Shown here: positions 6,195 to 57,185 of the stretch, in pieces | Layout: each line of letters begins with the position of its first letter | Numbering within the stretch: position 1 is the first letter of the stretch | Assembly: GCA_002633005.1 (NCBI GenBank) | Contig: NMRA01000735.1 | Coordinates: 1-64,000, forward strand | Source: Phoronis australis | Taxonomy: Eukaryota; Animalia; Phoronida | Length of the DNA: 64,000 bases | Direction: 5' to 3' | The notes under the pieces: model-generated | Told to the model about the DNA's origin: nothing | What the model saw: the letters and a program-made list of their open reading frames with translations, nothing else | Databases searched by the model: none | Program-made: the position numbers and the translations under genes

Positions 6195-6298
6195 AAATGG
6201 CTTTGACATAACTTTATTTTGCCTTCAATGGGTGGTCAGTACATTTACTTCACTGTGTACATTTCAAATGTCGTCGATGCCGTTGACCATCCAATTCC
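6195..6298 (-). other. Predicted 3'-UTR terminal exon of defensin-like gene A
   Basis: Minus-strand acceptor gatttttag at 6299 and AATAAA at 6213-6218. Both are conserved in the paralog (cattttcag at 47200, AATAAA at 47114-47119). The 3' end is estimated. Confidence 0.6.
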
Positions 6299-9200
6299 CT
6301 AAAAATCAAGCGTAAAACGTCAATTATGTAATTATAGTGGAGCACAAAATGAAAGATACTTATGCTGTGCAGTACAGTGAATAATTCTCAAAACACCAAT
6401 TAGAGTTATACATGTAGTTCTAGTCCGATTTATACTTCTGGCAACAGTGTGTAGATGTTCCAATGTGTACACAAGTTTTGGAAATTACTGCAAGATAGTT
6501 TTTCCAACGTTACGGAGTCGCCTGGCTCACTCTATTCGGAATGAATTGATTACTGACTGTTTCAGACACACAATCTGTCGTCCGCGTCGATTTTCAAAGA
6601 CAGAACTACAAGAGCCCTCCTATGGTTGAAAAAAGGAACAATCAGAATTGAGTTGTTGATCTTACTCGTGGCCCAGAGACTTGCAGCTGTTTCGTATAAA
6701 CACCGGTAGAGAGCTAAGAAATCTTCCCGCAAACTAGCCATTCACGAAATGCTCAGCAGAACAAGCAAGGCGAACAGCTTATTATTTAAAATGACTTATT
6801 CTTATTAAAATGACATAGGCAAAAAATTGAATTTCAGGTCTCAAAAGCGAGCCCCCATATATTAATATAGGGGGTGTCGCCAAAAGGTGGCCGAGAGCGG
6901 GTGCTTTTTATATTAATATTGGTTGCCTTGCCGTAAGGCGGCTGTCTTCTGCCAAGCCTCCCTATATTAATATGAGTGACCTCGCCCTGCGAGCGTGGCC
7001 GCCAATTTTAATATACGCAGCCAACTTGAAGGGGACCACAGAGTCTATAATCTGCCGAAGAGCAAAGTGCTTTACATTTCTGGGATACCCAACATTAGTT
7101 TGGAGGCACCACTGTTTGACTAACTTTGGTCACGGCCCCTGACTATTACAGGAGGTCCCAATGTTCTCGTGGTTTCCGGTAAAATTGCATAATTGGCCCG
7201 CTTTTCGACTGGCATTATGTAAGGCTCCCTATCATAATACATACATCTTTGTTCTCCAGTCGCCTTCGGGCTGGGCCCCTCCAGTCACATGACAGAACAT
7301 GAATCGGAACGTAAATCATAGCCAACTAGCCGTTACCCGTGCCTTCGCAGCTAGTGGGAAACGCGGAGGGGAAATAGCTACACCTAAGAATGAACCGAGT
7401 GTTCATCGCAAGAAACAGGAGTATTACTATAGGGACCGTGTTCAAAGCTTCAAACAGAATTTCTGTCACTGTCAGATATTATTAAGCAAGGTGTGCGGCT
7501 GCGGGATTCTTTCCCTAGGGAGTACAAATTTCTTTCCAGAACATTTGACCCTGCAGTAACATTTACCTTGCCCGTTACAGCCGTTCATAGAAGTAACAAA
7601 TCTATTAAACGTTAACAAAGGAAAATCTGTCGTCGTTTTGAAAATGGTGCATACTTGTGACACGTGCACGTAGGCCTACGCGCTATTTCCTAAAACTTTG
7701 CGATATCTGTCGAGAGTTTGTTCTGAAATTGGGTTTTGTGGAATTATAATAGCAAAAACTTTGAACGAAATGAAACCACTTCCGATTGTTATGATCTGTA
7801 CGCAACCTCGAAGTTGATTGAAGAACATGGAAATTGGCCAATAGGTGACGCAAAGGCACCCAAAGAGGGCCGCATGACAATTTTAGCAGCAGAATAACTG
7901 ATGAACGCCAATGTTCCAACACCCGGGTAAATAATTTAGTTACTCAAGGAAGAGTAAACAATTTTTAATGAGGCATAAGTAATTTAGGCAGCAGCAGGCC
8001 CGATGAATTATATTCGCGCCAAAAGCCGGAGGGAGTGAAATTAAGCCGATGGAGTGACGTCACCCAGGCCGTTGTGCCGACCGACTGACGTCACTAAGGC
8101 CAGTACGAAGCTGACCACCCTCCCTCCGCGTCCGCGAAGAAACGGCCCGCGAGAAAAATATAGGACACCTCGAATCCTTAATTTCCGTTACTAAGCTTCA
8201 TCGAAGATATGTGTAAAAGTAGAAAGAACCACTGAAGAAAGTAAGCTCTTTTTTAAATGATAGGTTTAAGTGTGAAAAGTATTTTTGACGAGGTGAAAAC
8301 TCCAAATCAGAGGCAGGATTTGGCCTACCGCCCTTTTAAAATATATGGGACGAAATTCGTACAGAAAGCAATGTGAAGTATTGCAGCCAGTAAACGGCCA
8401 ACCGAGGGGCTACGTGTTGCCTAGGCAGACGGTAGCCCCTAATTACTAGTCTGCCCCACTGGAGCTACGTCGCACTTAAACCGGTTGAGTTGCCTAATCT
8501 TGACTGGTGAGGGTGTCCGTAATGTTGGATATTCTATTCATGATGTTTTCGATAAATTCGTGTTGGATATATTTGATTTTTCAGTATGATCATAGCGATC
8601 TCTTATCTACAAGTTATTTCAAAGTTTTAGAATAAGGTAATGAACTTCTCTAATTATTTTAAAACTGGAAGTGATCTAAAACTAGCCATAACGTAACCAA
8701 TTAATCAGTTCTAAAAATCACAGTGACTTTACTTTCAGCATAACAGAGGGAGTCCCCGGGTTTTATTGTCATGTCAATGTGCTGACCTACAAATTGATAA
8801 TAGGTTCTAAGTGCATGTCACATTCTAGTTCCTCACACTGTTGTGGTCAACATAACAACTGCCAGGGCTGGGAAACATCAATCTGAAGAGAACTTTCACC
8901 TCTACTCAGAAAACTTATACTTAAATTTAAAACTAATTTGCATCCAAAAAGAAAAAGAAACAGAAGGAATTGCTTTAGTTTATATATGGGTTTGTTTCGA
9001 ATTTATTAAAAATATTCTTTTAGTCAAAAAGCCCACATTTGAAGATAAAAAGTAAGATATTTGGCATGCGACTAAACTGGATTTTGTATACTTTCTAAAA
9101 ACCAAAAGCTAAAGAATGTAATTTGTTGGAGATTGGATGCTACAACGAAATTATATTATCCCAATAAGCATAATTGAAGAAAGAATGTAGTAGTTGACTT

Positions 9201-9479
9201 CAATTTAACACAGGCAAAAGCTAGTGTGTGTTGTTCTAAATACATTTTTAGGATTTCCCATGCCAAATGATGTTTTGTGGATTTCGCAAGCTATTTTTTA
9301 TCTTCTGAGATCTATGCCATAGGTGTAATACAGCTGACTGGTAAATGATAAAACTTGCATGGAAATGATCTGTGTATATGTGCACTTTTTTGCCCAAGCG
9401 CAAGAGTTGATCCCTTCTGCCTTGTTCCAGTTTCGTGTTCAGACATACATACATGTAGTTGGCACGGGAGCGAAGCATT

Positions 9480-9595
9480 GCGTCCCAGGTTCTGTGCGTC
9501 ACAGGCTCTTTGTGTTCCATGCTCTGTGTATTCCGGGTCGTGGGTTCTATGTGTCCGGGGTTCTGATGTGTCCAGGGTTCTACATGTACATGTCA
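9480..9595. repeat. Short degenerate ~17-bp tandem repeat (tgtgtccagggttcta-like)
   Basis: Repeated gttct.tgtgt.c.gg units. Confidence 0.55.
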
Positions 9596-12259
9596 CGTTC
9601 TTTTTGTGACTTACTCCAGGTGCTCAGCAAATGCCATTTTAGGTTGACATGGGAATTTTGTGGTACGAATTAATGAACATATTAACATTTTCATTTGAAA
9701 TTCTTATTTATCTTTAAGTTTGTCTCATGACAATGAAGTAGCTATATTAGGGTAGCTCATTTTCGGTCGTTAATTATAAGCACCACTGTTATTGCTGAAT
9801 GAAATCTGGAAGTAATTAGTCCGAGGTGAAATGAAATTTCTCCAACTCTGTTGATTTGTCATCAAATGCTTTTTGTTCAATTTATTTATTTGCTGGCACA
9901 CTACAGGTCACTTTTTTATCTGATCAATTCGTAATTTACTGTCAATACCCGTCTCATGAATAGCTCAAGTATACTGGCTTTGGTTAAAAACAGAAGTGAG
10001 ATTGCATTGTTACTGCCACTCTTCACCATATTTTGTTTTGCAGAGCCATCCGATGGCTCTGGGCCGTTCTTTCTGGAGGGCCATTGTTTTTCTCTAGAAC
10101 TTGACGTTGCCAGATTTCTGAGGACTGCTTTCCAATAAATCTCTTAAATGAAATAACTTCAGAAATCACACTAACTTGCAAGGCCTAACAGCATAGCCCA
10201 AGATGAAGAAACTGTAGTCAAATATACTGTGTTGGGTGGGTTGAACATGCTTCAACATAATTTCTCACGTAGCTGTCCCGTCCCTAAATTCACTGAAAAG
10301 TTGCCTCGAGATTCAGCAAAGTCGTGCATTGAACCACAACACGAAATGAGGCCACCTGCTGCACTGTATTTATTAACATTACTATCGCGCATTGTTTGTT
10401 TGATCAAGAGTGTCCTTAACACAAAGCTTCATTAGAAATAGTTTGTTGAATCGTGACAGAAACTGCAGGGAAATTGAGCAAAAGTAACATAACCGGAATG
10501 TTGATTGTCAAAAAGTCCCGCAAAGCTAGAGGGAATTACATTAAAAATTCTACGATTTAATCAGTTTATGGAAACTAAGGTATAATGGCATACTACATAC
10601 AATACTTCTTTATTCAGCACTCTCAGGTCACCGCAAACTTTTGGATGATATGCTTCACCCAAGTGTCACATAGCTTTCGTATTTCATACTTCAATGTTAC
10701 ATTGGTTAAGGGGCAAGTTTTACTCAAACATTGGTCTAGGTGCATTTCCCACCTCTATGGTTATCCTAGGCCATCAGCTGTAGCTAAGTTCAAACCAGCT
10801 AAAGCTCTTTCCGTTGATGTAAATGTTATGTAATCAGTACCCTCTGCAGTGTAGGCTTGTTATCAGATCAGGTTATGTAATGTAGAGCAACTTAGCACAG
10901 GGAAGCTGTGAGTGCGATTTGGGGGTTTCTGAAAGTAGGGCGGCCATGACACTGTTGGTAGAGATAAAGTGAGGTGGTTTTGGACCACTGAATGTTAAAT
11001 ATTTCATTTTCTTTCTGCAAAATTATCAGTTTTCGTATCTCTCCAGGCTTTTGAGTTGGGGGGGCAGGTCTCAGGAATCACCTCATGTGAGCGCCCAGCC
11101 TAAAATATAGGGATGTAGGGGGACCCGAATGTTTGGGTTTGTGGATCTGATTACTAAAAAAAACGGATTTCTTCAAGGCCTATGCATTGCATTTGCATTC
11201 AACTACCCCCGGAGCCCTCCTGGCTGCCCTCATATGCTAGTCAGCAATTCGCACCCCGAACTGCGAAACGAAATATGGGAGAATTTCAGGGGGGGCACAT
11301 GTCCCCCCTTAAATCCACCGCTGTTCTCAACAGTATGAGGGAAACTCTCCAATGTAGCCAAATATCTTAAAACCAGGTCATGAACATTCCCACTAAATGA
11401 GGTTATTTCAGACCCTACTGATCAGGGAAAACAGTGGGGTTTAACAGATTGAACTAGAGGGTATTTATCTACCTTGAATGAGTTGCACTGGCTGGGTTGA
11501 GGATCAAAGGATCCCTCCTAGGTGCTCTATTCATCCAGTCACCTGTGAGGATAATTGGCTTCGCTCATGCGAATACGATCAGCTGATTACAATCTTGCCT
11601 AGATGACCGTACTTTTATGGAGAGCATTTTGTGTACAATGTAGTTTTTAATGCAATATCTAAAAAGAGGAGTGAAACAATAATTGTTAAATCTTTTAATT
11701 TTTCAAATCACACCAGGAGAATGATTTTGCAACACAGCAAAACTCACGATTACGTTTATTCGGCACCAAAAATATAGGACCCAAGTTAGGATAGTATAAA
11801 TGTAATCCTACTCGGAGTGTTATTTAGATTTTGAGCATAACCTAAACATTTTCTTGGTGATCTTAAAATCAATTTTGGCGGAAAAAATGGCGGTAAAATT
11901 TTGCGACCTGGAATTTATGAATGGGAGCTGGATTTTGAAAATGCGACCTGGGATTTTGGCTAGCTTGCAAATTGCGATCTGGCAATTTTCATAACATCGA
12001 ACCCTGCAGGAACACGATAAAATGAATTTGGATTTTGACATCAGTCTTCATATAGCTAGCTGGGTGACTTAGGTACCACTGTGTATCTCCGTTAGACCCC
12101 GAAATTTCACACAGCCCCGGTAGTTCTGCTTGTCAGTTCGTGAAATATTATTAACATGTACATGTAGAGCGTAGGACTATTATCTTGTACTACTCCGTGG
12201 TGCAGCTAACGACCGTGGGCCTGCGCATGCAAAATCTGGGAGTTAGCCAACACTCACCT

Positions 12260-13102
12260 TGCACTTTGCAGCCGTTAAAGTAAAAAATCTAATGAACGTC
12301 ATGTTGTTGCATAATTCTTTGTCTTTTTGTAACAAAGAAAAGTCCGTCATCGTTTCGTAAGCAATTCTCTTGTGACACGCGCACGCGCCATTTATTAATT
12401 TGCGACATCTCTGATGATATGATGACAGCTTGTTCTAAAATTTCCTGGTATTAAAATACTGAAAACTTGTAATGAAATAACACCTATTTACCGCAATGTT
12501 GGAAAAATTGGCGTTGTTCTACCATTATTCTACAGCTAAAATTGTGGTGCGATCTTTTGCTTGGCTTTCGGCGCCATTAAATATTGCGTCACCTATTGGC
12601 CAGTTTCTTTCCGACAGTCCTGAAAAAATCATAGTGGGCGCCAAATTTCTAGACCAAAAGCCTCGCCGATGTGTCGGTATTTATCCGCAAATATACACTT
12701 CAAACTTCTGAAGTGCTTCAAAAAGAATTACTTTAAAAATTTTGTAGATCTCACAAGGTACGTGTGTTACTATGGTCTGGCTTTTCAGAACAGACACAGT
12801 GTACTTGTCGACGGAATTGAATCTCGCCATCAGTCGGCGAGTTTTCGCCCTGCGATATCCCCACAATTTTCCGAAAAAGAATTTAATGACGAAATTTGAT
12901 AGCAATGTACCACAATTTTGTGGAAAGTCGATCTGTCGTAGGCTACAGATACGTTGCAGAGCATAAATTTGATGAATCCTAGCTTCGAATCCCACCTGTT
13001 TCGGACACTGTGTTTCAACAGCCTTAGGCTCCAATAAGCGCACCTCCTCTCCTGAAACTAGTTTTTCTAAGCGCCCTAGGGGCTTACTAGGGATAATACG
13101 GT
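12260..13102. mobile_element. Non-autonomous Tc1/mariner-like element, partial copy
   Basis: Internal blocks match 44975-45220 and 45680-45800, and 7575-7870 in part. Ends in ...taatacgg like the 44756-46030 copy. Confidence 0.55.
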
Positions 13103-13439
13103 GTCTATAAATGAGACCAAGAAAGCAACTTGGATTTGGTGGACAGAAAGTCATAACTGTGTAGCTGTCCATTAATTTAAAAGCAGCCATTGATTACGTT
13201 AATTTACCCAATTACATGGCGACATATTGTATCTGCCATTAATTGAAATTTCATCAAATATGTTGCTCTGACATCAAGTTTTTTGTCTGCACTCTACATA
13301 CAGGTTGCACTATTTGTCCAATTGGCACAAGATTCACCCACAACTTCTAGTCCCCGAAGTTCTGGAAGCCTATGGTCGTTCATCATGATCAGATTCAAGG
13401 TGGCGGACGTGTTGGCTATTTTGTTTTCGAAGTCAGATT

Positions 13440-14600
13440 CATATGCTCATAGAGGCCGCATTTCTATGCGCCCACATACCTATACATGTATGTGGGTGCA
13501 AATTGCCTTCATCTCTGTCTGGGCGTCCAGCGTCCGCAGCTGTAATTCCTGAACCCCTCAAAGAATCTTCAACCAAATTTCACAGATGGGTTCATATGAA
13601 GAGGACGACAGCTAGAAGAGGACGAATTTCGGACGAATCTGACTACCGTTGTGCCCCCTAGTGGCAATTTATTTTTTACATTTACCTCTGTCTCTTTAAA
13701 GGTCGTCAACGGATTTTGTGAAACTTGGCATATTGGCATCTGTAAGTAGGATGATGTTATATTCCTGTTTTCGGAAGGAGTCAAGGTATTTTGCGCCACC
13801 TTATGACCATTTTTACTGGGTTTTTTGGCATCTGCCTCTCTATCAACGAAACTGCTATTAAAGATGATTGTAGAAATTGGCATGTATGTTCTTACTATGA
13901 AGAGAAAGCCTGACGATGATTTTCGGATTACTTTGGCTACTGTGGCACCTCCTAGTGGCAGTTCATTGGAGACATGATGCTATCTCCCTGTTTTCCGAAT
14001 TATTTGAGGCATTTTGCGCCACCTAGTGACCATTTATGTTTTTTTTGGCATCCGCTCCTCTATCAACCAAACCATTCTATGGATTATTGTGAAAATTGAT
14101 ATATCTGTTCTTAGTATAGAAAGTACGGCTGACGATGACGACTGACTGCTGTGGCGCCTCCTAGCTTTTTTGCGCCTATAGCTGTATGTCCTAAGCCTAC
14201 TGCAGGATATTTATTAAATTTAGAAAGTGTATTCATGTCATTTTGAGAACAGATATTAACAACTTACAGTTGCATTGCCCCCTAGTGACCATTCCATTTT
14301 TTCCGGTCTTCCTTTGTTTCTCTGAAGTTTCTAGACAGATTTTTATGGAAATTGGTAAATACTTCCTATTAAAGAAACGATGTTTCTGTTTTCGGATGGA
14401 CTTGACATGTTTTGCACCATCTGGTGGCCATTTTTATGATACAAATAGACGTCTCAAGAACTATGATGTTTGCGATGCCCAATTGCTTCAAAATTTTTCG
14501 TCTGATATTTTTTGTAGAATGCTATTATCAGGGCTGCTTAACTGGAAGTTGTATTCAAAATTGCCGCCCTGACTTAGTTTCATTATTTTTCTTTAGTCCT
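13440..14600. mobile_element. Helentron/HINE-like non-autonomous element with internal tandem repeats
   Basis: tgtctgggcgtccagcgtccg head, then recurring units with aaa(c/t)ttggca and gcgccacctagtg at irregular ~70-150 bp spacing. The class is inferred from this layout. Confidence 0.5.
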
Positions 14601-16368
14601 GGGGTGCAACAACGGGAAAAGGAAATAACGTGATTTTTTTCATGTGAAGTCTCGCTCGTCAATCACCTTCCGGCGGTGCGTTCTATATTAATATAGTGGG
14701 CTTCGCTCATAGGCTGCCTTCCGGAGGGGATCCTATATAAATATCGGGGGCCGCAATCTCTGGCCGCCTTTCGGCGAGGCCGCCTATACTATTATAGGGG
14801 AACTCGCTGAAAGGCAGTCGGAAAGCGGAGCCCTTTATATTAATGTAGAGGGCCTCGCCTGAAGGCGGCCAGAAAGCGGACCTTCTATATTAATATAGAG
14901 GGCCTCACTCATCAGCCGTCCTCCGGCGGGGCCCCTCTATATTAATATAGAGGCCCCGATCTCCGACTGCCTTTTGGCGAGGCTGCCTATATTTTTATAG
15001 GAGGCCTCCCCAACAGGATGTCGGAGAGCAGGCCTTCCTATATTAATATAGAGAGCCCCGCTCATTGGCCACCTTTTGGCGGGCCATCTATATGAATATA
15101 TATAGCCCCGCTCGTTGGACACCTTTCTGCGGTGGAACTGTATAATATAGGTGAGCCCCGCTCTGCGGCCGCCTTTTGGAGAGGCCCAAATATGTTTATA
15201 TAGAGGGCCTCGCTTTTGAGGCCTGAAATTCAATTTTTTTTTGCCTATGTCATTTTAATAAGAATAAGTCATTCTAAATTATGAGCTGTTCGTATCTACC
15301 ACGTCGGGATAATTTTGCAGAAAGTTCCAGAAGATCTAAAACGTTCCATATACAGTAGTTGTTCAACAGGGTGAGTCCATGGTAATCGCGGAAGCCGGAA
15401 ATGTCCCAATCGTTCTGATCGTGTTAACGTTTAAAATGATGAACAGATGTTTCTTAAAAATGACAATAAATGATCAAACTAACGTCTCCTCAATTCCTAG
15501 ACCACGGCATCTAATATCCAAAATCATACTCGAATTAGACTTGGACTGAGAACTAAGATCAAGAAGTCGTTTGCGTTTAAGGAGAGTAGTCGAGTTCCAA
15601 CATTGGATAGCTCTATGGAGGTAACTGTGCAATGGTCCCGAATTATCTTTCATCATCTTGCAACCGCCCAACTGCTGTTGAATAAGCTGCCACTAGATTC
15701 TGCACCATACGGTAGTCTAAGTGGTGTCATACCAGGATAGGGTTCAGTAGCTATTTCGTAGCTAGAACAATTTCGAAAAAAATCATGCGTTTTCATTTAA
15801 AATACTCGACAATATCTCTCGTGATGTCGCTAATTACTGGTTTTCCTTAGTGGCCCTGATGTTATTGAACCCTACCCAGTATTAAAAAAGTAGAAATGGT
15901 ACCATTCAATAGCATGCCCAAGGGTTGCAAGGATATTGGGTTGACTAAAATGCCATAATAGGCCCTGGCAGATGTGTATTAGAATTGATGGCGTTACACG
16001 GAATGCGTGTAGTTTTACATTTTAGAATGTACGTAATATACTCTAAAGTGGTGCGTGATTTTTTCCAGCCCAACTCTACAGTGACGCGGTAGTACCGCTT
16101 TGATTGACCGGGTTGATTGCAATCATGGGGTCTAGGGAGCTGGCTGCTACCCAAAACCGCACCACTTGCAACTAAGGATGAGGTGACTTCTCCTAATTTC
16201 TCATGCAATCTTGTTACTTAAGTTTGCATAACTTTTGGAACACAAATTGCCAAAATTGTTGGGTAATGGGTGATAATTTTAAACGTTGGGGTGCAGTTTT
16301 CAAAAAACATTTAGTCGCAGCTCAGAACAAATTATACTATTTTTGATTTTGTATAGTTATATACGTAC

Positions 16369-16481
16369 CTATTTATAACACTTGCAGACTGACGATTCGC
16401 AACGGCCTCTATTTTTGCCGTTAACACGGCAACCTATATCGCAACCAAAACCCCAACATCTGCGGCCTCTTTCCAGTGCAA
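16369..16481 (-). CDS. Defensin-like gene A, coding exon 2 (propeptide end + mature 6-Cys peptide)
   Basis: Acceptor cctctctttcag, phase 1. Reads (V)ALERGRR-CWGFGCDIGCRVNGKNRGRCESSVCKCYK*. TAG is followed directly by GTACGT. 113 nt, same length as the paralog exon. Confidence 0.92.
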
Positions 16482-19571: not shown

Positions 19572-19653
19572 CCTCTTCTTCGCTTTCTACCGACAACGCC
19601 TGGAGGCAGCCCACAGCCAGCATCAATACAACGAATACCGCGACGCACTTCAT
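19572..19653 (-). CDS. Defensin-like gene A, coding exon 1 (signal peptide + acidic propeptide)
   Basis: ATG at 19653. Reads MKCVAVFVVLMLAVGCLQALSVESEEE+G with donor GTAAG. Upstream acceptor ttgaattacag puts the exon start at 19666. This is the most conserved block I saw between the two duplicated units. Confidence 0.93.
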
Positions 19654-20743
19654 GACTTCTAGTTTTCTGTAATTCAATATTACATGAAGTTACGGAGATT
19701 CAAGTATATAAAAAGAGAAACGAGCACACCATGTGTCCCCTGGATTGCCTGTGTATCACAATTTCTGCAGCGCAATCACTTCTAGGTACAGTTAATAAGT
19801 CATATGCACACATCTTTTTCAGAACTGCCCAACTCCATCTTTTGAATTGTGGATTTTAAGAAAATCTTGTAACTAAACATCCAGCAGTTATTTTTGTATT
19901 GAGTTGCCATGCAACGGCAAACAAAGTCAAAGATTTTTTTTGATTTATCTGTTTGCTTTGTTTCTTTACATATCAAAGTCGACTTATCCAGTTCAATTTT
20001 TGAGCAAATCCTATATAAACCTGGTGATGCATGGTAAACTTTGATGTAGGTTGAAATTCGGACAATCACTGCCCGATATCAAGATTATGCAACATGATGT
20101 ATGCCAATCTAAAATAACCCTTTAGCATGTTTGTATTCCTGTGCCTTTTGACGTAGGTAGAAGATATTTCTACAGGTGATAACAATAGTCCCGATTGGTG
20201 AAAGCCCATAGAAACTCGGAATGTCCATATCATTGGAATGCTAATAGGCAGCGGCTGGGGTGGGGTTACGTTTTATAAGGTTTTCTTAACAGGAATAATA
20301 TGAAAGTATCTAATAAAATCTGATGACTTTGCACAATTGAAATCTAATGTTGTTCATTAAGGAAACTGACACTGAATGTATCGGATACAAACGATGTAGT
20401 CTTCACATCGTCACTTCTGCATTGCATCAACTGAAAAATTGGCAACCGAGACACTACAGTGAACTAGGTTCCTGTTATTACAACGACAGCGCTACTGTCG
20501 AGTAAATTAGGTGCCCCCACGACGACACGACGAAGATTGTCAGTTCTGCAATGCATCAGCAGAATAACAGACAATCGAGAAACTACAATATACTGGGTTT
20601 TCGTTTTCAAAACCACAAGTAAACAATGGACACACACTCTTCTATTGTTTAACACGATACGACTAGACGCGTTCGTAACCCGGTACCGTTTTATGGGATA
20701 ACTATGTTTAAGCGTGAGTCTCGTTTAACTCGATGTATACATG

Positions 20744-28306: not shown

Positions 28307-28350
28307 CATGTACATGTACATGTACATGTACATGTACATGTACATGTACA
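28307..28350. repeat. (CATGTA)7 microsatellite
   Basis: Perfect hexamer run. Confidence 0.95.
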
Positions 28351-31104: not shown

Positions 31105-31254
31105 CATAGGAGGATCCAGAGTGGTCAAGGGTCTGGACCCCCTTTTTACCTTGATTTTAGTAATACCAAATCTATCATATTCGTATGGTTGACTTGGACT
31201 GGCATTTTAAAAACCATTGATCCGATCCCCCTCCCCTTCGAAAATCCGCCCCTG
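31105..31254. mobile_element. hAT5-like MITE (CAGGGGCGGATCC type); orthologous copy at 55963-56120
   Basis: Ends ...atccgcccctg. 5-bp flank ctacg on both sides of the B copy (ttacg/ctacg in A). Confidence 0.65.
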
Positions 31255-31399
31255 CTACGTTTGATCTTGTGTCACTGTTAAACTACTGTAAAATTGAAAT
31301 AGACAGTTCTCGCTCTACATGTGTATAATAGCTTCGCAAATGCACACCGTGAGATCATTCTGTTGCACTTATATCGTGCAAGTCTGACATATTTAATAG

Positions 31400-31668: not shown

Positions 31669-32188
31669 ATAGTCTGCTGCGAGTTTAGAACTCTGTAAGT
31701 GCGTTCACAAAGTGTCACCTTTTGTGTTCTATTTTCTATTTTGTGTTCTAACGTAGAACAAATATGTTTCGGGTCTCCGTCTTCGGTGGCCCCTTACAAA
31801 CGATGACCACTACATGGGCGTTTTACGTACTTAAGTAGTATAGGATATTTATCGCTCCTTTTTTTAAGCTTCTAAAATTTGTTTGCAAGACATTCCTTCA
31901 GAATGATACGAAAATCTGAAGAAGAGTACAGTTTGTATAACAGATAGTGATGTTTTTGGCGACTGTTTTGGAAATTTTCAGAAAGTCTTCACGAGTCCGT
32001 AAAGTCACTCTAATTTAATATAATTCGTGATTTTCCGCACCACGTCACAAAAAGCATGCATGAGCTAAGCTTGAGCATAGATTTTTTACCAAATCGGGTC
32101 CTTTTGACGGAGTTGTAAGGAACTAAATTGTAGGCAATCTCTTTTACTAGCCTTGGTAACACCATGCAGGGAACATTTAACTTCTTAC

Positions 32189-32230
32189 CTGAACAATCAC
32201 AACTGTTGTGTATGCCGTACATGTACATCT
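32189..32230 (-). other. Predicted non-coding exon 1 of gene A
   Basis: CAG|GTAAG donor at 32189/32188, conserved in the paralog at 57152. Lies ~30 bp downstream of a TATA-like box. The start is estimated. Confidence 0.62.
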
Positions 32231-32249: not shown

Positions 32250-32350
32250 AAGCTTTCATTTAAGCCATTTGAAAACCTTCATCCACGTTTCTATTGGTAG
32301 ATACTTGGAACATCACTCAAAGCCTAGGAAACACGTCGTTCAGCCAATCA
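32250..32350 (-). promoter_or_regulatory. Predicted core promoter of gene A
   Basis: TATA-like TTAAATGAAA at 32254-32263. CCAAT boxes at 32293-32297 and 32344-32348, both conserved in the paralog. Confidence 0.55.
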
Positions 32351-46030: not shown

Positions 46031-47094
46031 GCCCTAATGGTGACATCAGTGCACGAGACGATGATTTTTATTTAAAGTATTAGCAAGTTTGTTGTGGTGA
46101 CTGGCGCCAACGGCCGGGTGACTGAACTTCGGGTGAGTAGATTTTCTGGCTCCGGCACTCGCCCAGCTGGAGAGCAGGATTTTTCAAGACTAAAAGCCTG
46201 GTAAATCCCTGACTTCCACACTTTTCCAAAAAAGGGAAAACTACGGAAGAATGGATGAGGAGGGTAAAAGTCTAGTTGGCGTGCGTATTTGGAGATCGAT
46301 TCAACATCAGACAACTTAATTTTTGCTAACGTTGACAAGTCTTTTGACCACACCACCTTGCATGTTTGTCAAGGCGCCTCGTTTTCGATCAACATGACAG
46401 CAACGCCGCGCGTTCGTGAAATAGGTGAATAGTATGCGTCTGTTAATTGTCGGGAGACGAGCACGGAGCAAACAGATCACACAAATTAATAATAAGTTTG
46501 CTTGTACTCTGTGCCTACACGCAATACAGAGCCCTCTCATAAATAGCCCCCCAGATAGATTGCTCAGCTTATACCAAAATAGTACAACATAGAACAGCAA
46601 CAACAATAAAACTACCTGACACGGTTGTCACAAACTTTGGCATAACCTGAGAAGCAGGAACTGTATAGGTCAGCTGTGAAGACGATATGTTGGTCACAAC
46701 TTTGTTATAACATGAAGGAAAAATAGGCTAATCATCATATACATGCACTGTAGTAATGGTAAGTTATTTTTTTGTAAGTGATAGTTGAGCTGGCAGCTCA
46801 AGTTAAGGTTTTGAAATATCAGAACGATTTGATGAATTACATGTAACTTCTGCTCCATTCAGTTGTTCAGTCCTTGAAGTTACTCCTCAGCCCACTTGTG
46901 GCAGACAGTTCATCACCTCTTTGGTACATGTATCTGTCTTTTCTGGCCCATACAAAGGATGTCTACAACATCGCCTTTTTAGACTTCAACAGCATTACAT
47001 GAACGATTCTTTAATATGGTACCAGTTGGGTTTTGAAAATGATCAAGATTCAAACTCGCAGCCAACGACATCCACGGGAGAAAGAAGAGCGGAT

Positions 47095-47199
47095 GAAAGT
47101 GGTTTGACATATTTTTATTTTGACTTCAAATGGTCGCCAGTAAATATGTTTAACTAGGTAAATTCCAAAAGTCGACCATGCCTTTGACCAACCAATTTC
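47095..47199 (-). other. Predicted 3'-UTR terminal exon of gene B
   Basis: Acceptor cattttcag at 47200 and AATAAA at 47114-47119. Collinear with 6195-6298. Confidence 0.6.
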
Positions 47200-48773
47200 C
47201 TGAAAATGAAGTCCAAAGCGGTAATTATGTAATTACAGTCATCATAAACTAAGACACAAAATGAAAGACACTTGTGTTGTGGAGATTGAGCTACAACAGT
47301 AGAGTGAAAAAATCTCAAAATACAAATTATTCGTGTAGTTTTAGTTCGAAGAATAGATTTCTGACGACAACAGTGTGAAAATGTTCCAATGGGTACAAAT
47401 CATATGTTGCGGCCTTTTGAACATACTGCAAAATAATTTCCCCCACCTACATGTAACTGAGTTGCCTGGCTCCTTCTATTGATGACTGACCGGTTCACGC
47501 GCAAGGTTCGTCGTAATCAGCCGATTTTCAAAGACAAAAACTGCAATAGCTTCTCTATGAATGAAAAGGAGACGTCAGACTCAAGGCTTGAGTTATTTCA
47601 CCCGTGCTCCATAGACTTGCAGCTGTAGTCTAAGAACACTGGGAGAGGGCGACGAAATTTTCGCGCAAAATAGATATTCAACAATGCCCAGCAGGAGGAG
47701 CCACTCGGCTTTACCACGTCGGGACAATACTTTCTCAGAACCTTCCAAAAGATCGTATTTTTTCACCAATTTTTTAAACTGGATATGTGCCCTGTAATCA
47801 CCGCCGTCTTAAATGTCCCCATCTTTGTAAAAACGCTAACGTTTAAATTGATGAACATATATTTTTAAAAAATACATGTAGCAATAACTGCTAAAGTTAA
47901 CTTATTCACAATTCCTAAACGTGGAGTACACTCTCGATTTTTGGCTTAGTAACAAAACTAAAACTCTGCATTAAATTTAGGAAGATCAGTTGAGTCTCAT
48001 CTTGGGTCAGTTTCATAGAGGCAACCGGGCATTTGTCCCGAATAATTTTTCATTATCATCTTGTAATCGCCACCTTCCTGTTTAAGAAGCATCGACTAGA
48101 TTTTGCCTCACACGTTACATGTACGTGGTATCATAAAAGGATAGGACAATACCTGTCTTGCGGCAGGATCAATTTAGCCAAAATCACGCGTTTTTATTTA
48201 CAATGCACGGCACTATCTCGCGTAATTTCGTGCAGTCGTGGTTTTCCAGGGAGGTCCCAACAACACTGAACTCGTTCCATTATTGGGAAAGCAGAAAACA
48301 AACCCTTTTGTCGTATTATTAAGTTTTAAAAGGATCTTGGTTAGATTAAAATTCATAATAGGTCCTGGCCGATGTTTTTGAGAATTGATACGGCATGCAT
48401 GTACATGTACGTTTACACTTTTCGAAGTCACATGATATACGCTAAAGTGGTACATGATTTTCCAGCCCCGACAATTCAATGACACGGTAGTACCGCTCCG
48501 ATCATGAGGGGACGATTGTACATTCTCGGTGAGTTTATGCAGATGGTCACAGCTCAGAACCAAACCACTCGCCACTAAGGTGGTGATTTTATATATTTAA
48601 GTTACCACAAAATGTTGTTAAGTACGTTTGTGTAGCTTTTGGAACACAATCGCCAAATGGGCTCATTTCTTCTTTAAACAATGAGGCGCAGTTTTCAAAA
48701 AACCTTTAGTCGCAGACCAAAACAACGTATAACCATTCCAGTTGAATTTGTAAAATTTTATACATGTACGTAC

Positions 48774-48886
48774 CTATCCTATGCACATACAAGTTGACCC
48801 ACGGCACGTACCGACACCCTTGCCCGAAAATAAGCATGAAAGATAGCAACTCCCACCTGAGCATCTGCGGGATCTTTGCAGTGCAT
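48774..48886 (-). CDS. Defensin-like gene B, coding exon 2 (propeptide end + mature 6-Cys peptide)
   Basis: Acceptor cctctatttcag, phase 1. Reads (D)ALQRSRR-CSGGSCYLSCLFSGKGVGTCRGSTCMCIG*. TAG is followed directly by GTACGT. 113 nt. Confidence 0.92.
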
Positions 48887-50169
48887 CTGAAATAGAGGAC
48901 ACTATTCACTTGTAAAATGCAGTTGTACTTCATTCTCACAATTCTAAAGGTAAACGCGACTGTATCCGTGGCCAATGTCTGGGGGGAGGTAGACGTTCTA
49001 ATGACACGAGTACAATGTATAAGGTGACGGAAACATAAACCCTGTTGTTGCATAACAAGTGTTAGAGAAGGGGCGTGTTCCGGGGGGGAGGGTTGTTCCC
49101 GGACGAAAAGACTAAGGCACGTGGAGCAGAACTATAAAAAGTCCATGCGCGACTTTATTAATGAAGAACTTTTTGAATACTTATCTTAAAATCCGTTTTG
49201 AAACGTAACGCTTTTTGTAATCTCTTCGTCTTCTGGTGTAGGCCATTCAGCAGTTTATTTTGCAGACTGTTTAAGTGGGGTAAGTCAACAAGCTGGATTG
49301 GGTAGGATTTTTGTGCGTGCTCTCCGGTATGGCATTGTGACTAGCAAAGGCTGGTGCCGTCACGCTGTATTCGATTCTTGGTGTACGTAGATGAAACCGA
49401 TGCATTGGTGGGTTGAACGCTTTGATTGTAACATCACAAAAAATAAGGTAGTAAACTGTGTACCGCTTGCAATCCGCAGAATACGTTCATATCATTTTGA
49501 TAAATATACCGTTTCACTTTTGAATTTCGATGTTGAAATCAAGCTGATTTACCGTGAGCTCTACTTAGTAAACTGGCAATTACTTTGGGTCCTCCGGTTT
49601 AATAAATCGTCAGTCGATTGGTTTGATTTTTGTTACTACTCAGATTAATCGTTTCGTGAAATTACACCATATAACACTTCCTGTTTCTATGGTCAGGATG
49701 TCGGCAATAAGTATTATTTTTTACCTTAGAGAACACGATTACTATATTATCTTTAATTGAAGATGGCTTGAAAGCTTTCCATTTTTGACCCGGCGAAGTA
49801 TCAGCCAATATAGACTGTCAGTGATAATTGGCAACTTCGTAATCAGAATTTAATTTTGTGAGAATGTACTTTCCTTAAAATTATTTATTTTTATTCTTTC
49901 TTATGCCCGCAGTTCTTTCAGTCACCGAAAAGTGGCGCTTTGAACTACTTGATTACCAATCTAACCAATATGATCCCACATAAGCTATGGCGGCATGGGG
50001 TTATTGATTCCCCCCTTTTTGTGCAACCAACCCGGAAACTGAAACTTCAAGGGGATGGAGTGAGAGAATTGGTAACTACAAGGTAAATATATACTCACAA
50101 CAGTACAATTTGATAACAAATTAGTCAATTTTATGTCCTATATAATACCTTAAACTTAGCTATGTATAA

Positions 50170-51950
50170 ACTTGATTAAAAAGTCGAGGAGGATGTGGGT
50201 GTACGTTTCAGAAAATACATACAAAACAAATATATGTCTACATATATATTCAAACTGGGTTCAAATGTCGAAATCACCAATAAGGATTTAAGATAAACCT
50301 GAGACCAAACTCAGTGCCCAAAAGTGAATGAAACTATATGAAAAACTTATCTCCTGAAGAGTAACCCGCACAAGAAGGTGCAGCAACACATTCATAACGG
50401 AAAAAATACACAAACTCAATGCCAAAAATTCTCACTTACTGCTTGCAAAAAGTGTTTAAGTAAGGTGAACTTTGAATACCATTCACAAAAAGGCCAAATG
50501 ACTAAGTACATGTAGGCACACCCTTTGAGAAAACACACAAAGGGTCAGTACTACGAGTAAAGCGTATTAATGTACAATACGACTTGGAGCGAACTTACAG
50601 TAGGATTGAAGTCATACATGTACATATAAGCCAGTCTAATGGTTTTTAATAACTTATTTCGTTACTACATGTACATGCAAATTACAACAACTGTTGGTAT
50701 TCAGAGACTTAGAAACTCCTCTGCTCTCGAGAGGTATATCGACATGCAACGCTTAGGGTCCACAATTTTGGTCTTAGAAATCCTAGATTAAAAAGTGACT
50801 GAGTGTTTTTCGCTTGGAAGGTAAATGTCATATGAATGGCAGGCCTGTTTTTTGGACAAATGCTGAGCTTTCACCTAAATATAAGTCTTTGCAGCTTCTG
50901 AAAGACATAATGGAAATAATAAAATAAGTTTTCCGAGAGATATTTTATTTTTGATTTCATCCCAAGGAGCACCTTTCAAGGCCATAAAACAAGAAATAAG
51001 CCTTGATCAGGAAAAGTTTCTCAAGAGGTAACCCATTGCAGGTGCCTCTTAACAGCCTACCGACGCAAGGATGCTACCTCACTGGGAATGTACTCAGTGG
51101 TAATAATACAGCAGATAACATTGACCGATACCCTGCCCAAGTAATGTTAGCAGTTCTCGATGAACCTTGTAAGGTAGGAACATTCAGACAATCATTCAAA
51201 AGAACCCGTAAAATGGTTAAATTGTTGTTTGACACATTGGTTACTGAAACACCTAAATTTTGACCTGAAGTAATGGTATGTACATGTACTTGGGTTATGC
51301 AAAATGCGACCCCCCTAACAAAACTAGAAAGTCTCGAGTCGTATTGTGAAGTTTCAATAAGCGCAGAGATGAATGATTTAGACTCGCCACTCGGTCTGCA
51401 ATAGGAAAAACCAGAACTTTGCCTTATCGAAACAGACCCCAATATAAGACACAATGTGAAATTGAGCAAGAGCAGACTTGTCTAAACTTGCTATAAAGCC
51501 TAGATCTAACAAGAAGTCCACAGAAAAACACGTGTCGGCAAGGAGATTGGTTCTGGAATCATCGACCATTCGTCAAGATACGTCACTAGGCGAACACTGT
51601 GTCAACGCAGAGAGACTGTGACAACACTGATTATTTTGCAAAAACCTCTCAGTGCCACCGGAGGACCAAAAGACATGAAATAAAATTACTTTGCAAAAAA
51701 CTCTTAGTGCCACCGGAGGACCAAAACACATGGACTAAAATTGTAAACTTGGGAATCGAAGGTTAACATTAAACACTGACGACGAGGCTTCTGAATTTAT
51801 GTGTGAAAAGAAGCATCTTTCAGTGCCAAAGACAGGCCTCAATCTCATCTTCGAACTAAATTCAACATTAAGCAGGCTTCGAAGAAGAAGCAAACGAAGT
51901 GGAAGGCCGGTATGTATACATGAACAGGTAGCGACTCCACCACTCTGTCC
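50170..51950 (-). mobile_element. DIRS-type tyrosine-recombinase retrotransposon remnant
   Basis: TYLDEW (YLDDW-like) near 51575, then LLDLGFIASLDKS...YIGVCFD (RT C-terminus), and DPKRCMSIYLSR near 50730-50765 (CPVRAL..YL.R-like YR segment). Absent from unit A. Confidence 0.7.
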
Positions 51951-52083
51951 AAATCTGGGAGCCTGGGTTCAGTGTGAAACGAGACATCGCCACGCATTGC
52001 AAGCACTGCCCGTGATCACTTTAGCTGTACTTGTGAAATTCGTGCGGAACTCGGTCCATGACACTGACAGTTATTTTTCTCAC

Positions 52084-52165
52084 CTTCGTCTTCGCCATCT
52101 ACCGGCAGCGCCTGGAGGCAGCCCACAGCCAGCATCAGTACAAAGAATACCACCAAGCACTTCAT
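52084..52165 (-). CDS. Defensin-like gene B, coding exon 1 (signal peptide + acidic propeptide)
   Basis: ATG at 52165. Reads MKCLVVFFVLMLAVGCLQALPVDGEDE+G with donor GTGAG. Acceptor ttgaattacag puts the exon start at 52178. Confidence 0.93.
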
Positions 52166-53409
52166 GACTTCTAGGTTTCTGTAATTCAATGTCAGACCAA
52201 GTTAAGGAGACACAAATAAATAACAGATGAAACAAGTGCATGAGATTTCAGTCTCAACCAAAATTTGCAATTACCCTTTCTTATTATCAACTACAAATAG
52301 AAACAAAGCGAGATCTTTTGCACAATATGCGCCTCCTAGGTTGCCTGTGTAACACAAGATCTGCAGCCCAATCATTTCTAGGTACAGTTAAAGAGTCAAG
52401 TATCTGGACGTGTCTCTTTGAGAACTGCCTAACACCGTTTTGTGAATTGTGGATTTCATAAACGTCTTCAAATTAACAACCGAAAGTACATAGGAAATGC
52501 TTATCTTAGGTTTCATATTGAGTTGCCATGATAAACAAGTCAAAGAATTGATGTGGTCACCTGTGAGTTTCTTTACCTAAGGTAGTCGATTTATTCAGTA
52601 CAATTTTTGATTACTTACAGTGTATGAGCAAATGGTATTTAAAGCTGCTGATGTATAGTAAAGTTTGACATAGAATGAAATTCTGAACAATCACGACTAA
52701 ATATCAAAAATTACTACGTGATTTATGCCGGTCTAAAATTATCTTTTAGGAAGTTGGTATCTAGGGGGCCTTTTCACGCAGGTTGAAGAAATTTTGACTG
52801 TTTTATGCCAATTTGCCCCACCTGGTGGCAGCCAGTGAAACCTCAGGATTCCATTGATTCAAATCGGCGGCGGTTGGGGCGGGATCCGGTGTTATGAGTC
52901 ATCCCCAATAGGAATAATATCTAAGATGTCTTAAAAAACCTGCTAATTTTGCACAATTTAATCTGGTGTTGTCCAGTATAGAAAGTGACACTGAGTGCAT
53001 TGGATACTGACTACCAATGAAGTTTTGAGACCGTTAACCGAATGACAGACAACCAAGACATTACAATGTGCTGCATTTCCGCTATAACAGCCACAATTAG
53101 ATAATGGAGACACAATTTCCTAGAGTTTAATACGATACGACGAGACTTGTTCTTGACGCTGTATTGTTGTAACGGATGACGATGTGTGTCTCGTTCGATG
53201 TACAGTATACATGAAGTTCTTAAGCTTTAAAACCATACATGTACACTGAGATTCGCGTTTTAGACCGGGATCCCAGATGTCTTTTGGCATGAAAAGGTAA
53301 TCAGTGGTACCTTGATACCACAGTGATCCATGGATATCGCAAAGCTAGGAAATAGCCATCTGACATGTTTGGTCTGGTGCATGTGTTCGGGAGGCATGAC
53401 AATAACACT

Positions 53410-54040
53410 CGAAAATGTATCGTTCTAATGGGTTACAATATAGCGCGGGTCTCATCCCACTAGCTGTATCGTTTTAGAGTTTCAACGATACATCAAGATT
53501 TGCGTTTTTCACACTGTGTCGTTTTCAAAATAACAGCGTTACTGCTAGCGTTCATTTCGTTGTATTTGCTGTATCGTCATTAGGCTTTAAAACGATACAA
53601 CACGATGCGATCAGTTTGTCAGGCTGTATCGATCTAAGAGGTTGCAACGTTAAAGCGCGGGTCTGGTTCAACTCGCTGAAGTATACATGCAGTTCTAGAC
53701 TTTTATAGGATACAGCGAGACTAAAGTTTATCACGCTGTATCGTTCAAAGGGTTACAACGTACGACCGTGCATCTCCTTCAAATTGCTGTATTATTGTTC
53801 TTGGGCTTACAAACGATGCCGCGAAATGCGCGGTTGTCACGCAGTATCGTGTTTAGAGATTACAACGTAAAAGCGTGCGTGTCGTTCCACTGGTTTCATC
53901 GTTGTTGGTTACAGTATTTCGTTCTACATTAGGTGCTATAACGCTAAAGTGTCCTTCTCATTATTCGCTGTATCATTTAGGCACTTCAACACCACACAAC
54001 GGGACGCGTGTTTGTCTCCCTGTATCGTTAACGGTTATAT
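53410..54040. repeat. Degenerate ~105-bp tandem array with internal inverted repeat; shorter version at 30790-30940
   Basis: Recurring acgatacagcg ... cgctgtatcgtt ... ttacaacg. Confidence 0.65.
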
Positions 54041-57000
54041 TGTTAATGCGTTCAATTTTATGAATTGTTCTAATCTTTAACGTAGGTGGATACACAAAAA
54101 AATTAATTTTGACTGTTTTTTACATTTTCATATCATCCTAATCTTTAATTCTTGATGCACAGTATACTGAAGAAAAATAAAATCATTCTGAAAATCCAAA
54201 GTTGTTTTTTAGCTATATTTGACCAAGCCTCAGTAAGTCATATGGCTTGAGTGCTCACCAGCTCAGTGATTGACAACTGGGGCGGAGCTTATATACAAGG
54301 ACACTAGCTCTAATCTAACCCTGTCAACAAGTATTGCGTAACCGGGCAATCGAGAGTGATGTACCAGCTGATATTGGTGTTGTAGCAAGACCAAGAATAA
54401 AACAATTCTATTTTTGACCATGTGAAAGTTAGTAGTGAAATAGTGAACTAGCTCCTGTTCCGAGCCTGAGCCTGTATGTCTATCAGCAAAAAATTAAGTT
54501 GAGTACGCCAAGCCCTACCGAAGCCATCACTGCACTCATCTTGAGGAGTCCGTGCAGAAATTGTGCATGTTTAAGAGAAGTCGGTAATATAAGGTCAGTT
54601 GTCTTGCGAGAGGACGCAGAGTGTCGACGTGGGTGGTGTTGCACGATTCGGTGAGAGTGCATACACGCGCTGTGAAGACAAGCCGCGCGCGCGACACATG
54701 GACAACTACATGCCGTCAGAGTAGAGTCTTCGCAGATAAACCGTGCTTCTGTGCTGGGAACGTGCCGTGGAGAAACTAGGCTGTCAAACCCAGAGGATTT
54801 TTAACTTGCCACTGGCCGTAACCCAAAGAATTAGAAAAATGACCCAGTGTTCAACATAACAAAAAATTTTCTAGTGCATAGATTCTAAAACGGAACCCTG
54901 AATTAAAACTCATGATATTATACGATTTTAGAGGAAAGCAATATAAGAAACTTTAGTAACTTGAGAATCTCACCCAAGCGGCGCTATTTGCGCAGAAAGT
55001 GATATTTTCTTAACCCAAAGTCCATTCTGTACAGGCACGTAAAAATGTTGAACCATTACTATGAAAGTAGTTCTTTATCCTCGTCGCCAATATTGTTACG
55101 TAGGCAGTAACGCGGCGATTTGATATAACACATATATTGGTTGAGGATAATATTGGAATATTAACAAATAGGTCTGTGTAATATAGTCAGAGAGTCTTTT
55201 ACAAACTGAGTGGAGAGTTCAGATGAATCGTATAAACATCAACACATGGTGGTCGGCACACCAGTACAGCAGACAATAGATCAACGCTAAGCTCCGCCCA
55301 CGTGACAGCCATATTTGTTTTGGTCGTCTGTCGTGCATCACAAGTTCGAAAAAATGATTAAAATTACGCTGTAAACAAACAGGTATGTCACATTTTCTAA
55401 ATATGAAGTAAATATCAGCTTTATTTCTAGTACTTCAACAAAAATTGGAACATAATGACCACGCATTCTGAACGAAATTTGATCTCAAGTGGCAATCGAT
55501 GACCGCTTAACTTCAAAGCCGTTTTTCTCGGCTCGTGATTTCAGGATAGTGACACGATTCTCGGGCCTATTTTTCCACAACACGTGGGTCAATTTTAACG
55601 AAAGTTGCAAATTTGAAATCCTCTTGGACTGAAGTAAAATCGCGTGCCAGGGTTTTTTGATAAATGGACCAGATTTTTAGTTATTAGACGGAAAGTGACC
55701 AAATGACAAAAAGTGGCGTGCTTGCCCCAACTCACACACAAAAAATGCCACAAAATCAAGATCATAATGATTTTGTACATATATTTGGTATGGATAAGTA
55801 GAATATTGCGTAAGGAAATAGTTGATGATGATCCCTGTGCATTTTGAAAAAAAATTCGAGGTAAAATTGGATTTGTTGAAAATTAAAAAATACGATTTTT
55901 NTGCTCGACCAGTCATATTCTGAGGAATCCGCAGGACACACTCCAGCACGTACTGGTCTACGCATAGGGGGATCCAGGGGGGTCAAGGGGTCCGGAGCCC
56001 CCTTTTTACCTTGGTTTTAATGATGTCAAATCTATAATTTTCAAATTGTTGACTTGGTCCCCCCTTCCAAAAAGTACTTGACCGTCCCTTCTCCTTTAAA
56101 AAATCCTGGATCCGCCCCTGCTACGTTTGATCTCGTGTCGTAGTAAACCTGAATAATGAAAATAGTCCATTTTCGGTCTAAAACTGCGTCGTAATTGCAC
56201 ACCGCGGCATCGTTCAGTTGTACCTATACCATGCAAGTCTGACATATTTAACAGTTAAACCTGGGTCTGACCAAGTCTAAAGTTAAACATGGTTTAAGAT
56301 CTTAATACAGGTCTAAAGAATATAGACCTCGTTGGTGAAATGAAAACTGACTTAGACCAGGTCTAAACTGGAGTTAAACCAGGTTTTACAAGACCACTGG
56401 TCTAGAAGTTGAACCACCTTTATGAAATGCAGATTATCATTAAACCTGGTCTAAGTCCAGTTTAAACCTGGTTTAACTTTAAACCACCTTTATGAAATCG
56501 GCTGATAGTGTTAAGTACAACATGCGTCAAGTGTGTCAAAGGCGTTCTCTTTTGAACACCGTGTACCACATTTGTTGTATTTTGAACAATTTTTGTGGAA
56601 TGGAGTTTGAACGTCAGGTATGCCGAAACAAACACATAGTGTGCTACGCCTTTAGAACTCTATAACGGCAGTCTTACATTTCTGTGTTCTAGTTTTCATT
56701 TTTATTCTAAAATAAATTAAATGTGTTTAGGGTTTCCGTCTTCCTTGCCTTACAAACGATGACCACAAAATGGGCGTTCACGTACTTAAATAGCACTAAA
56801 CAGAATAGTTCACAACATTGGTCCTGTTAAAGTTTTTAAAAAATATGTGAGCAAGCCATTCCTTTAGAAAAGATAAGGCATTTTGATGAAGAGCACAATT
56901 TGCATAAAAATAGTGTTCTTTCCTTAAGGACTGTTCTGGAAATTTTCTGAAAGTCTTCACGAGCGTTTAGGTCAGCTCATTCAATACAGTTCGTGATTTT

Positions 57001-57151
57001 CGGTATTACGTTACAGCCATGCATGTATAAGCTTGAGGGACAATTTTTTACTCCGTATCGGACTTTTCTAGCGGAGTTTTTACGGAAGTGGCATTGTTTT
57101 TCACAAGTGTAATACCATGCAGCCGTATGCAGTGAGCAATAAATTCCTTAC

Positions 57152-57185
57152 CTGCAAAATCACCACTTGTTGAGTTTGCCGTAAT
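57152..57185 (-). other. Predicted non-coding exon 1 of gene B
   Basis: CAG|GTAAG donor at 57152/57151. Collinear with 32189-32230. Confidence 0.62.

Follow-up and report, generated by a model that had tools for sequence, protein, structure and literature searches.

The first 64,000 nucleotides of the Phoronis australis contig NMRA01000735.1, the whole stretch analysed here and called the window below, contain two pairs of very short minus-strand exons that could encode small six-cysteine peptides. Are these genuine genes and, if so, to which peptide family and to what kind of function do their products belong? Combining RNA reads, sequence searches and structure prediction, we find that the two genes, here called A and B, are really transcribed and spliced. 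From the predicted features of their products we consider it probable that A and B are secreted, cationic paralogues of the alpha/beta type stabilized by cysteines (CS-alpha/beta), belonging to a lineage-specific family and likely to be antimicrobial defensins.

The coding parts of the genes are 19653-19572 plus 16481-16369 for A and 52165-52084 plus 48886-48774 for B, all on the minus strand. In each gene an 82-nt and a 113-nt coding exon are joined across a phase-1 GT..AG intron (3090 nt in A, 3197 nt in B) into a precursor of 64 amino acids (aa) free of stops, exactly as the initial annotation had claimed for exon sizes, coordinates, splice ends, phase and product length. A broad CS-alpha/beta cysteine regular expression run over the six frames of the window matched twice, both times at the peptide exons of A and B, and gave no match in 100 block shuffles of the window. 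Each gene consists of four exons, the first and last of which are non-coding: exon 1 holds 5' untranslated region (UTR), exon 2 the signal and half of the propeptide, exon 3 the remaining propeptide and the entire mature peptide, and exon 4 the 3' UTR, where AATAAA has been kept in both genes. The stop codon forms the final three bases of exon 3 in A and in B, with a GT donor directly after TAG. Coordinates are collected in Table 1.

Four RNA runs carrying the same species label were aligned to both units of the duplicated region, X1-X3 as raw reads, about 18-19% of each run being read, and X4 as contigs. In X3, 150 reads with 55 starts join 52084 to 48886, exactly at the predicted coding junction of B. 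The same run shows every one of the three introns of B, and the read 5' ends cluster at 57172-57174, about 35-40 nt downstream of the promoter-like motifs. For A, 551 X3 reads with 90 starts join both coding exons; their joint is reported as 16482/19574 plus one letter, which is the predicted 19572/16481 junction with a single-nucleotide polymorphism (SNP) at 19573, by which codon 27 reads Asp instead of Glu, and the same allele appears as a loose end. Both coding junctions predicted by the initial annotation are thus found in RNA. Exon 1 of A was placed by a loose end at 19669 in 403 X3 reads that matches 32192-32214 exactly, and its exon 4 by 85 X3 reads at 6276, all on one strand; the 16369/6298 joint of A is not among the 15 joints listed out of 92. 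The X3 junction reads of A and B are first-mate-plus only, that is, from a single strand, as expected for minus-strand RNA in a usual stranded library. They amount to 50 (A) and 14 (B) per million in X3. Neither X1 nor X2 has a coding-junction read of A, and of B there is one in X1 and none in X2; this difference between the runs may stem from tissue, from stage, from induction or from X1 and X2 individuals that lack the genes.

Were the coding introns left unspliced, the frames 19653-19534 and 52165-52019 would extend to 40 and 49 aa with two cysteines added; we rejected such read-through as the main product, the intron bins beside the exons being shallow and no read support being seen. A minor isoform of B, in which six X3 reads join 52084 to 47199 and omit the peptide exon, would yield the signal, half of the propeptide and a 16-residue tail lacking cysteine, and is probably splicing noise.

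The precursors conform by prediction to the secreted form with a furin-type site that had been proposed for them. The signal is 19 aa long and hydrophobic, with a best 11-residue Kyte-Doolittle mean of 3.4, and ends in Ala, cleavage being predicted by eye. It is followed by an acidic propeptide of 16 aa that ends at R-x-R-R (R-G-R-R in A and R-S-R-R in B, sites likewise judged by eye), and R-x-R-R is the furin consensus. In both mature 29-mers the cysteines stand at positions 1, 6, 10, 20, 25 and 27, giving the spacing 4-3-9-4-1. This comprises CxxxC and CxC (the cysteine-stabilized helix, or CSH, motif) plus two further cysteines, with G-x-C (the GxC gamma-core) at the fourth cysteine and an n-loop of four residues; neither peptide has adjacent cysteines or the KCxN signature at the fourth cysteine. 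The net charge of the mature peptide is +3.7 in A and +1.7 in B, and the average masses calculated for the oxidised peptides are close to 3223.7 Da (A) and 2832.3 Da (B). As given in Tarr 2016 (PMC5116183; this and the other papers cited here are drawn on in excerpt), six-cysteine CS-alpha/beta peptides are defined by CxxxC and CxC plus two more cysteines and have n-loops of 4-16 residues, a range that includes A and B. The spacing had been taken as unusual. That view has to be given up, since A aligns gap-free to alpha-KTx 19.1 (BmBKTx1) with all six cysteines in register, and 4-3-9-4-1 is listed in at least four rows of a table in Tarr 2016 (cobatoxin, BmBKTx1 and two velvet-worm sequences from Peripatopsis). 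From the cysteine pattern the disulfides would be 1-4, 2-5 and 3-6.

The CS-alpha/beta fold, claimed at first for both peptides, is borne out by structure prediction for B. Given the two-sequence alignment with B first, AlphaFold places a helix at 10-20 and strands at 24-28 and 31-35, an alpha-beta-beta topology with a predicted local distance difference test (pLDDT) of 84-89 across the mature part. Foldseek returned no match for this model at E 0.001, which is to be expected at 30 residues; its ranked rows include BmBKTx1 (root-mean-square deviation, rmsd, 0.7), tamapin, a scorpion defensin and nasonin-1 (rmsd 1.1). In VIA, 37 rows reach a Z of 2 or more, nearly all of them CS-alpha/beta peptides by title, among them navitoxin (4.4), BmBKTx1 (4.3), nasonin-1M (3.6), drosomycin (3.6) and termicin (3.5). 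The agreement of the model with known structures at an rmsd of about 1 A supports a CS-alpha/beta fold for B, and homology to B suggests the same fold for A, whose own model is weighed below.

Among the protein collections searched, none appears to hold a true sequence relative of A or B. Against Pfam, A gave Defensin_2 at 17.2 bits (E 0.0049; gathering score 20.4 bits) and B a single row, the plant pollen-coat CS-alpha/beta family SLR1-BP, at 16.7 bits (E 0.0099; cut-off 22.7); Toxin_2 gave no row for either at E up to 10. In a sequence search of the PDB, at least seven of the nine matches of A are scorpion peptides by name, the best being alpha-KTx 19.1 (E 0.015), and the 30 matches of B comprise scorpion toxins and nasonin-1 along with numerous antibody loops matched by chance. 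The nearest language-model clusters in the Atlas are Toxin_2 for both peptides, at 0.86-0.87, where values below 0.9 are leads only. A word-index search of proteins of 23-74 aa, made with A's mature exon and with B's signal exon prolonged into the intron, yielded no candidate. A HMMER search of 1.84 billion representatives, covering A only through its 36-aa exon, gave two Sushi-repeat matches that we rejected as scored by summed repeats. In metagenomes the exact 26-nt signal motif had no match, and the one candidate of 287 that passed an alignment scan was rejected as a chance match of 12 residues followed by a stop on a bacterial-looking contig. Rfam gave no match, and literature searches, made without the name of the host, found no description of these peptides. 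The suggestion of an undescribed family therefore stands for the sequences, which are unrecorded in the collections searched, but not for the fold and the cysteine spacing, which are already known.

A and B are not the whole family. Self-alignment of the window shows two units, at about 6014-34420 and 46930-58864, that are 67-76% identical, so that the tandem duplication is old; no third gene or relic of these exons was found within the window. The reads show transcripts with a common signal exon and 3' UTR exon but with different middles, and these middles are absent from the window when searched at two mismatches. The evidence consists of loose-end fragments of at most 30 nt on 19572-19666, 52084-52178 and 47158-47201. 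One very abundant paralogue has a propeptide ending in A-L-Q-R-T-R-R followed by I-T (1198, 2139 and 2806 reads in the three raw runs) and reaches 94-254 loose-end reads per million across X1-X3. A V-D-I-Q-E type is present in 335 and 215 reads, and one X4 contig holds a variant of it. A C-terminus V-C-V-C-R-R-stop is spliced to the shared last exon in 211 and 227 loose ends and in 98 reads of X1, and a C-terminus C-Q-C-V-stop occurs in X4 contigs with a summed depth of about 25,000. All paralogue C-termini seen carry C-x-C just ahead of a stop at the exon end, like A and B. Together these transcripts imply at least three further family genes outside the window. The ratio of V-C-V-C-R-R ends to abundant propeptide reads is 0.082, 0.099 and 0.081, and this constancy suggests that the two belong to one transcript.

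Divergence between A and B is concentrated in the mature peptide: identity is 91% over the signal codons, 72-75% over alignable introns and 47% over the mature codons (38% outside the cysteines). With one gapped aligner, gaps counted, the mature region scores 0.51 and lies below all of 37 same-length intron windows (mean 0.68, minimum 0.53) although its six cysteines are fixed; the comparison involves two sequences only, and the intron windows come from stretches selected because they are alignable. Outside the cysteines the proportions of nonsynonymous and synonymous differences (pN and pS) are 0.63 and 0.62; on 29 codons dN is 0.78 and dS 1.68. Since the two classes of site have thus diverged equally outside the cysteines, dN/dS gives no sign of positive selection. 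The divergence of the mature exon could come from diversifying selection with multi-base changes, from exon exchange with a third paralogue or from gene conversion of the flanks. Exchange may be easy here, because the mature peptide lies in a single exon with a phase-1 intron before it and another intron right after the stop.

Several described systems resemble A and B in part. By analogy of architecture the nearest is navidefensin3, with the short-n-loop defensins of Nasonia vitripennis, which in the excerpt available (PMC2853521) share the signal, the propeptide and a short-n-loop six-cysteine peptide; no sequence similarity is shown, however, and A and B are four-exon genes with an intron directly after the stop. 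Nasonin-1 (PDB 2koz) matches B at equal length across the cysteine span, with an rmsd of 1.0-1.1 A to the B model, but identity is about 30%, and nasonins are described there as having no propeptide (PMC2853521), whereas that of A and B is 16 aa long. Insect-type defensins (Drosophila, sapecin) have the precursor layout in common with A and B, and one paralogue of the A/B family ends in V-C-V-C-R-R; their n-loops, in the excerpts, are mostly of 12-16 residues as against 4 in A and B, which also fall below the Pfam cut-off. The CS-alpha/beta defensins of Branchiostoma floridae (PMC4165938) are from the same superfamily and a marine invertebrate, but, compared by description only, have a phase-0 intron in the c-loop, while the mature region of A and B lies within one exon. 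The Mytilus CRP-I peptides (PMC10138031; mussel comparison peptides were also drawn from PMC7168163) are likewise encoded by tandem genes with a non-coding first exon, a conserved signal and propeptide, a dibasic site and a hypervariable six-cysteine peptide. They are knottins of pattern C-C-CC-C-C with the peptide in the last exon, so that the likeness is one of analogy only. Finally, alpha-KTx 19.1 (BmBKTx1) and cobatoxin have the identical 4-3-9-4-1 spacing and an rmsd of 0.7-1.1 A to the B model; A and B differ from them by the missing KCxN, by the missing Toxin_2 match, by E-values of 0.015-0.12 and by the acidic propeptide with its furin site. Most alpha-KTx precursors are not known to have such a propeptide and site.

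If A and B are defensins, the signal peptide would direct the precursor into the endoplasmic reticulum, the acidic propeptide would offset the cationic peptide until a furin-type protease cut after R-x-R-R, the three disulfides would fasten the helix to the beta-hairpin and the released 29-mer would bind a target in the microbial envelope. The one highly expressed paralogue would then be a standing defence, expression of A and B would be limited to some tissue, stage or condition, or to some individuals, and rapid change of the mature-peptide exon would track changing microbes. The initial annotation had left the choice between antimicrobial and toxin unmade; the precursor layout, the C-terminus of the paralogue and the missing KCxN lead us to lean towards a defensin. 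In the excerpts consulted, Drosophila defensin shows the same layout of signal, acidic propeptide and Kex2-type site, and many Drosophila defensins end in V-C-V-C-R-R (PMC11116330); nasonin-1 is lethal to two Gram-negative strains, at 1.5 and 15 uM (PMC2853521); and a conserved signal with a hypervariable mature region is the pattern of the defence-type mussel CRP-I peptides (PMC10138031). The B model matches nasonin-1, termicin, drosomycin and a scorpion defensin as well as toxins. The positive net charges of both peptides and the Defensin_2 score of A, though below cut-off, also speak for a defensin. A number of observations weigh on the other side. A misses the Defensin_2 cut-off and B has no match to that family at all; the best matches by sequence, language model and structure are scorpion K+ channel toxins, all of them weak; and the six-cysteine pattern is described as unable to separate toxin from antimicrobial (PMC5116183). 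B is only weakly cationic, with two basic residues, and hydrophobic (grand average of hydropathy, GRAVY, 0.62). Modelled alone from single-sequence input, A came out all-beta with no helix, a predicted template modelling (pTM) score of 0.37 and no fold match. The V-C-V-C-R-R end is assigned to the abundant paralogue by the read ratio of 0.08-0.10 alone, and no kappa-B-like site common to the promoters of A and B was found.

The same evidence can be turned towards other functions. Ion-channel toxins or deterrents of skin, mucus or a feeding gland, recruited from a defensin family and convergent on short scorpion toxins, would account for the gap-free alignment of A to alpha-KTx 19.1 (E 0.015), the Toxin_2 clusters nearest to both peptides in the Atlas, the leading fold rows navitoxin and BmBKTx1 (Z 4.4 and 4.3) and the short n-loop; one-run expression and a hypervariable mature exon suit toxin families, and, according to the title of PDB entry 6px8, recruitment of defensin scaffolds as neurotoxins took place repeatedly. 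We nevertheless regard this as unlikely. A short n-loop suggests toxicity when combined with KCxN, which is linked to channel-toxin activity (PMC5116183), and KCxN is absent from A and B, as is a Pfam Toxin_2 match at E up to 10; Atlas scores below 0.9 are leads only, CS-alpha/beta peptides of equal length match by cysteines and size alone, and members of the family are defensin-like at both ends. A variant of this idea, taken as a whole, strikes us as quite unlikely: in an animal group with no described CS-alpha/beta peptides, a lineage-specific defensin family would be turning into toxins, with an insect-like abundant paralogue, with A and B shrunk to scorpion-toxin size and acting on ion channels, and with a mature exon that outpaces neutral introns, synonymous sites included, in the manner of conotoxin-type hypervariability. 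A non-killing secreted ligand on a defensin fold, serving in immune signalling, in the response to wounds, as a protease inhibitor or in gamete or larval recognition, has a chance that we put as low as that of the recruited toxins. Sample-restricted expression would suit it, as would the hydrophobic character of B with its two basic residues and its only Pfam row, SLR1-BP, below cut-off; cytokine-like roles have been proposed for some mussel antimicrobial peptides (PMC10138031, in excerpt), and recognition proteins evolve fast too. Against it stand the clearly cationic character of A and the fit of the acidic propeptide and the sibling sequences to antimicrobial defensins. A reading of A and B as duplicates of the abundant paralogue that are still transcribed but decaying and without function is very improbable: the near or full absence of junction reads in two of three runs (A 0 and 0, B 1 and 0) and the equality of pN and pS outside the cysteines (0.63, 0.62) would fit decay, but the two genes, although they differ at 53% of the bases of the mature region, have preserved all six cysteines, the two glycines, the lengths of their exons, the furin site and the splice sites and have acquired neither a stop nor a frameshift; the signal exon is better conserved than the introns, and X3 has 50 and 14 junction reads per million. 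Defensin-like host-defence peptides thus remain our preferred explanation.

Table 1. Exons, promoter-like motifs and the large insertion of genes A and B, in window coordinates
Feature	Position	Strand	Basis
A promoter-like motifs: CCAAT at 32297, TATA-like AT-rich box 32263-32254	32254..32297	-	sequence, position conserved with B; function inferred
A exon 1, 5' UTR only, 5' end not fixed, GT donor at 32188	32189..32214	-	X3 loose end
A exon 2: 13 nt UTR, ATG 19653, 19-aa signal (predicted cleavage), 8 propeptide residues, phase-1 donor	19572..19666	-	
A exon 3: propeptide remainder, R-G-R-R site, 29-aa six-cysteine peptide 16458-16372, TAG	16369..16481	-	551 X3 junction reads
A exon 4, 3' UTR only, AATAAA 6218-6213, 3' end not fixed	6195..6298	-	one-strand X3 reads; 76% to B exon 4
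8.5-kb insertion, intron 3 of A	6771..15292	.	inverted repeats at both edges; break in A/B alignment
B promoter-like motifs: CCAAT 57249, TATA-like box 57215-57207	57207..57249	-	sequence; function inferred
B exon 1, 5' UTR only	57152..57174	-	joint 52178/57152, 27 reads; 19 molecule ends
B exon 2: ATG 52165, signal peptide, 8 propeptide residues	52084..52178	-	
B exon 3: R-S-R-R site, 29-aa six-cysteine peptide 48863-48777, stop TAG then GT donor	48774..48886	-	RNA joints on both sides
B exon 4, 3' UTR only, AATAAA 47119-47114, 3' end not fixed	47096..47199	-	58-read joint 48774/47199

The remainder of the window is animal-like DNA, with 38% GC, spliceosomal introns and relics of long interspersed nuclear elements (LINEs). 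A Pfam scan covering 85 of the 116 stop-free stretches of at least 75 aa matched reverse-transcriptase pieces only. Broken LINE-type pieces (RVT_1, zf-RVT) lie at 3121-4741 (+), 21615-22241 (+) and 41866-42315 (-), the second of them in intron 1 of A. Intron 3 measures 10070 nt in A and 1574 nt in B. The insertion in the A copy, absent from B, has inverted repeats of 88-95% identity (I2, I5) and palindromic minisatellites of 50-51 nt at both ends (6840-6985 and 14683-15214), and is likely a foldback-like or DNA-transposon-like relic. Within the same intron a repeat at 13627-14447 shows one-strand RNA at a bin depth of 113-141 in each of the three runs; it has many loose ends and likely comes from other genomic copies. 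Another repeat, at 31089-31673 and 55947-56509 in intron 1 of the two genes, is 76-84% identical, has reads on both strands and predates the A/B duplication. The commonest 8-mer of the window, TACATGTA, has 86 counts over both strands at 43 sites, and is presumably a motif shared by several marine invertebrate genomes; the papers listed for it deal with oomycetes and a fungus. A (CATGTA)7 array lies at 28307-28350, CpG observed/expected is 0.84 across the window, and the assembly has a gap of 976 N at 1197-2172, with further N at 55901 (one) and at 63550-63556 (seven).

The protein collections searched thus lack a whole peptide family that is expressed and has a very abundant paralogue among its members, which we attribute to its coding exons of only 27 and 37 codons. 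A and B provide two 29-mers that can be synthesized and lie near the lower limit of CS-alpha/beta size, as candidates for antimicrobial testing. The set of paralogues is natural material for studying how a defensin scaffold diversifies, and the divergence of the mature exon, faster than that of the introns of the gene, gives a testable evolutionary signal. The finding would matter much more if the host phylum proved to have no described CS-alpha/beta peptides, or if these peptides acted on channels without the known toxin signature.

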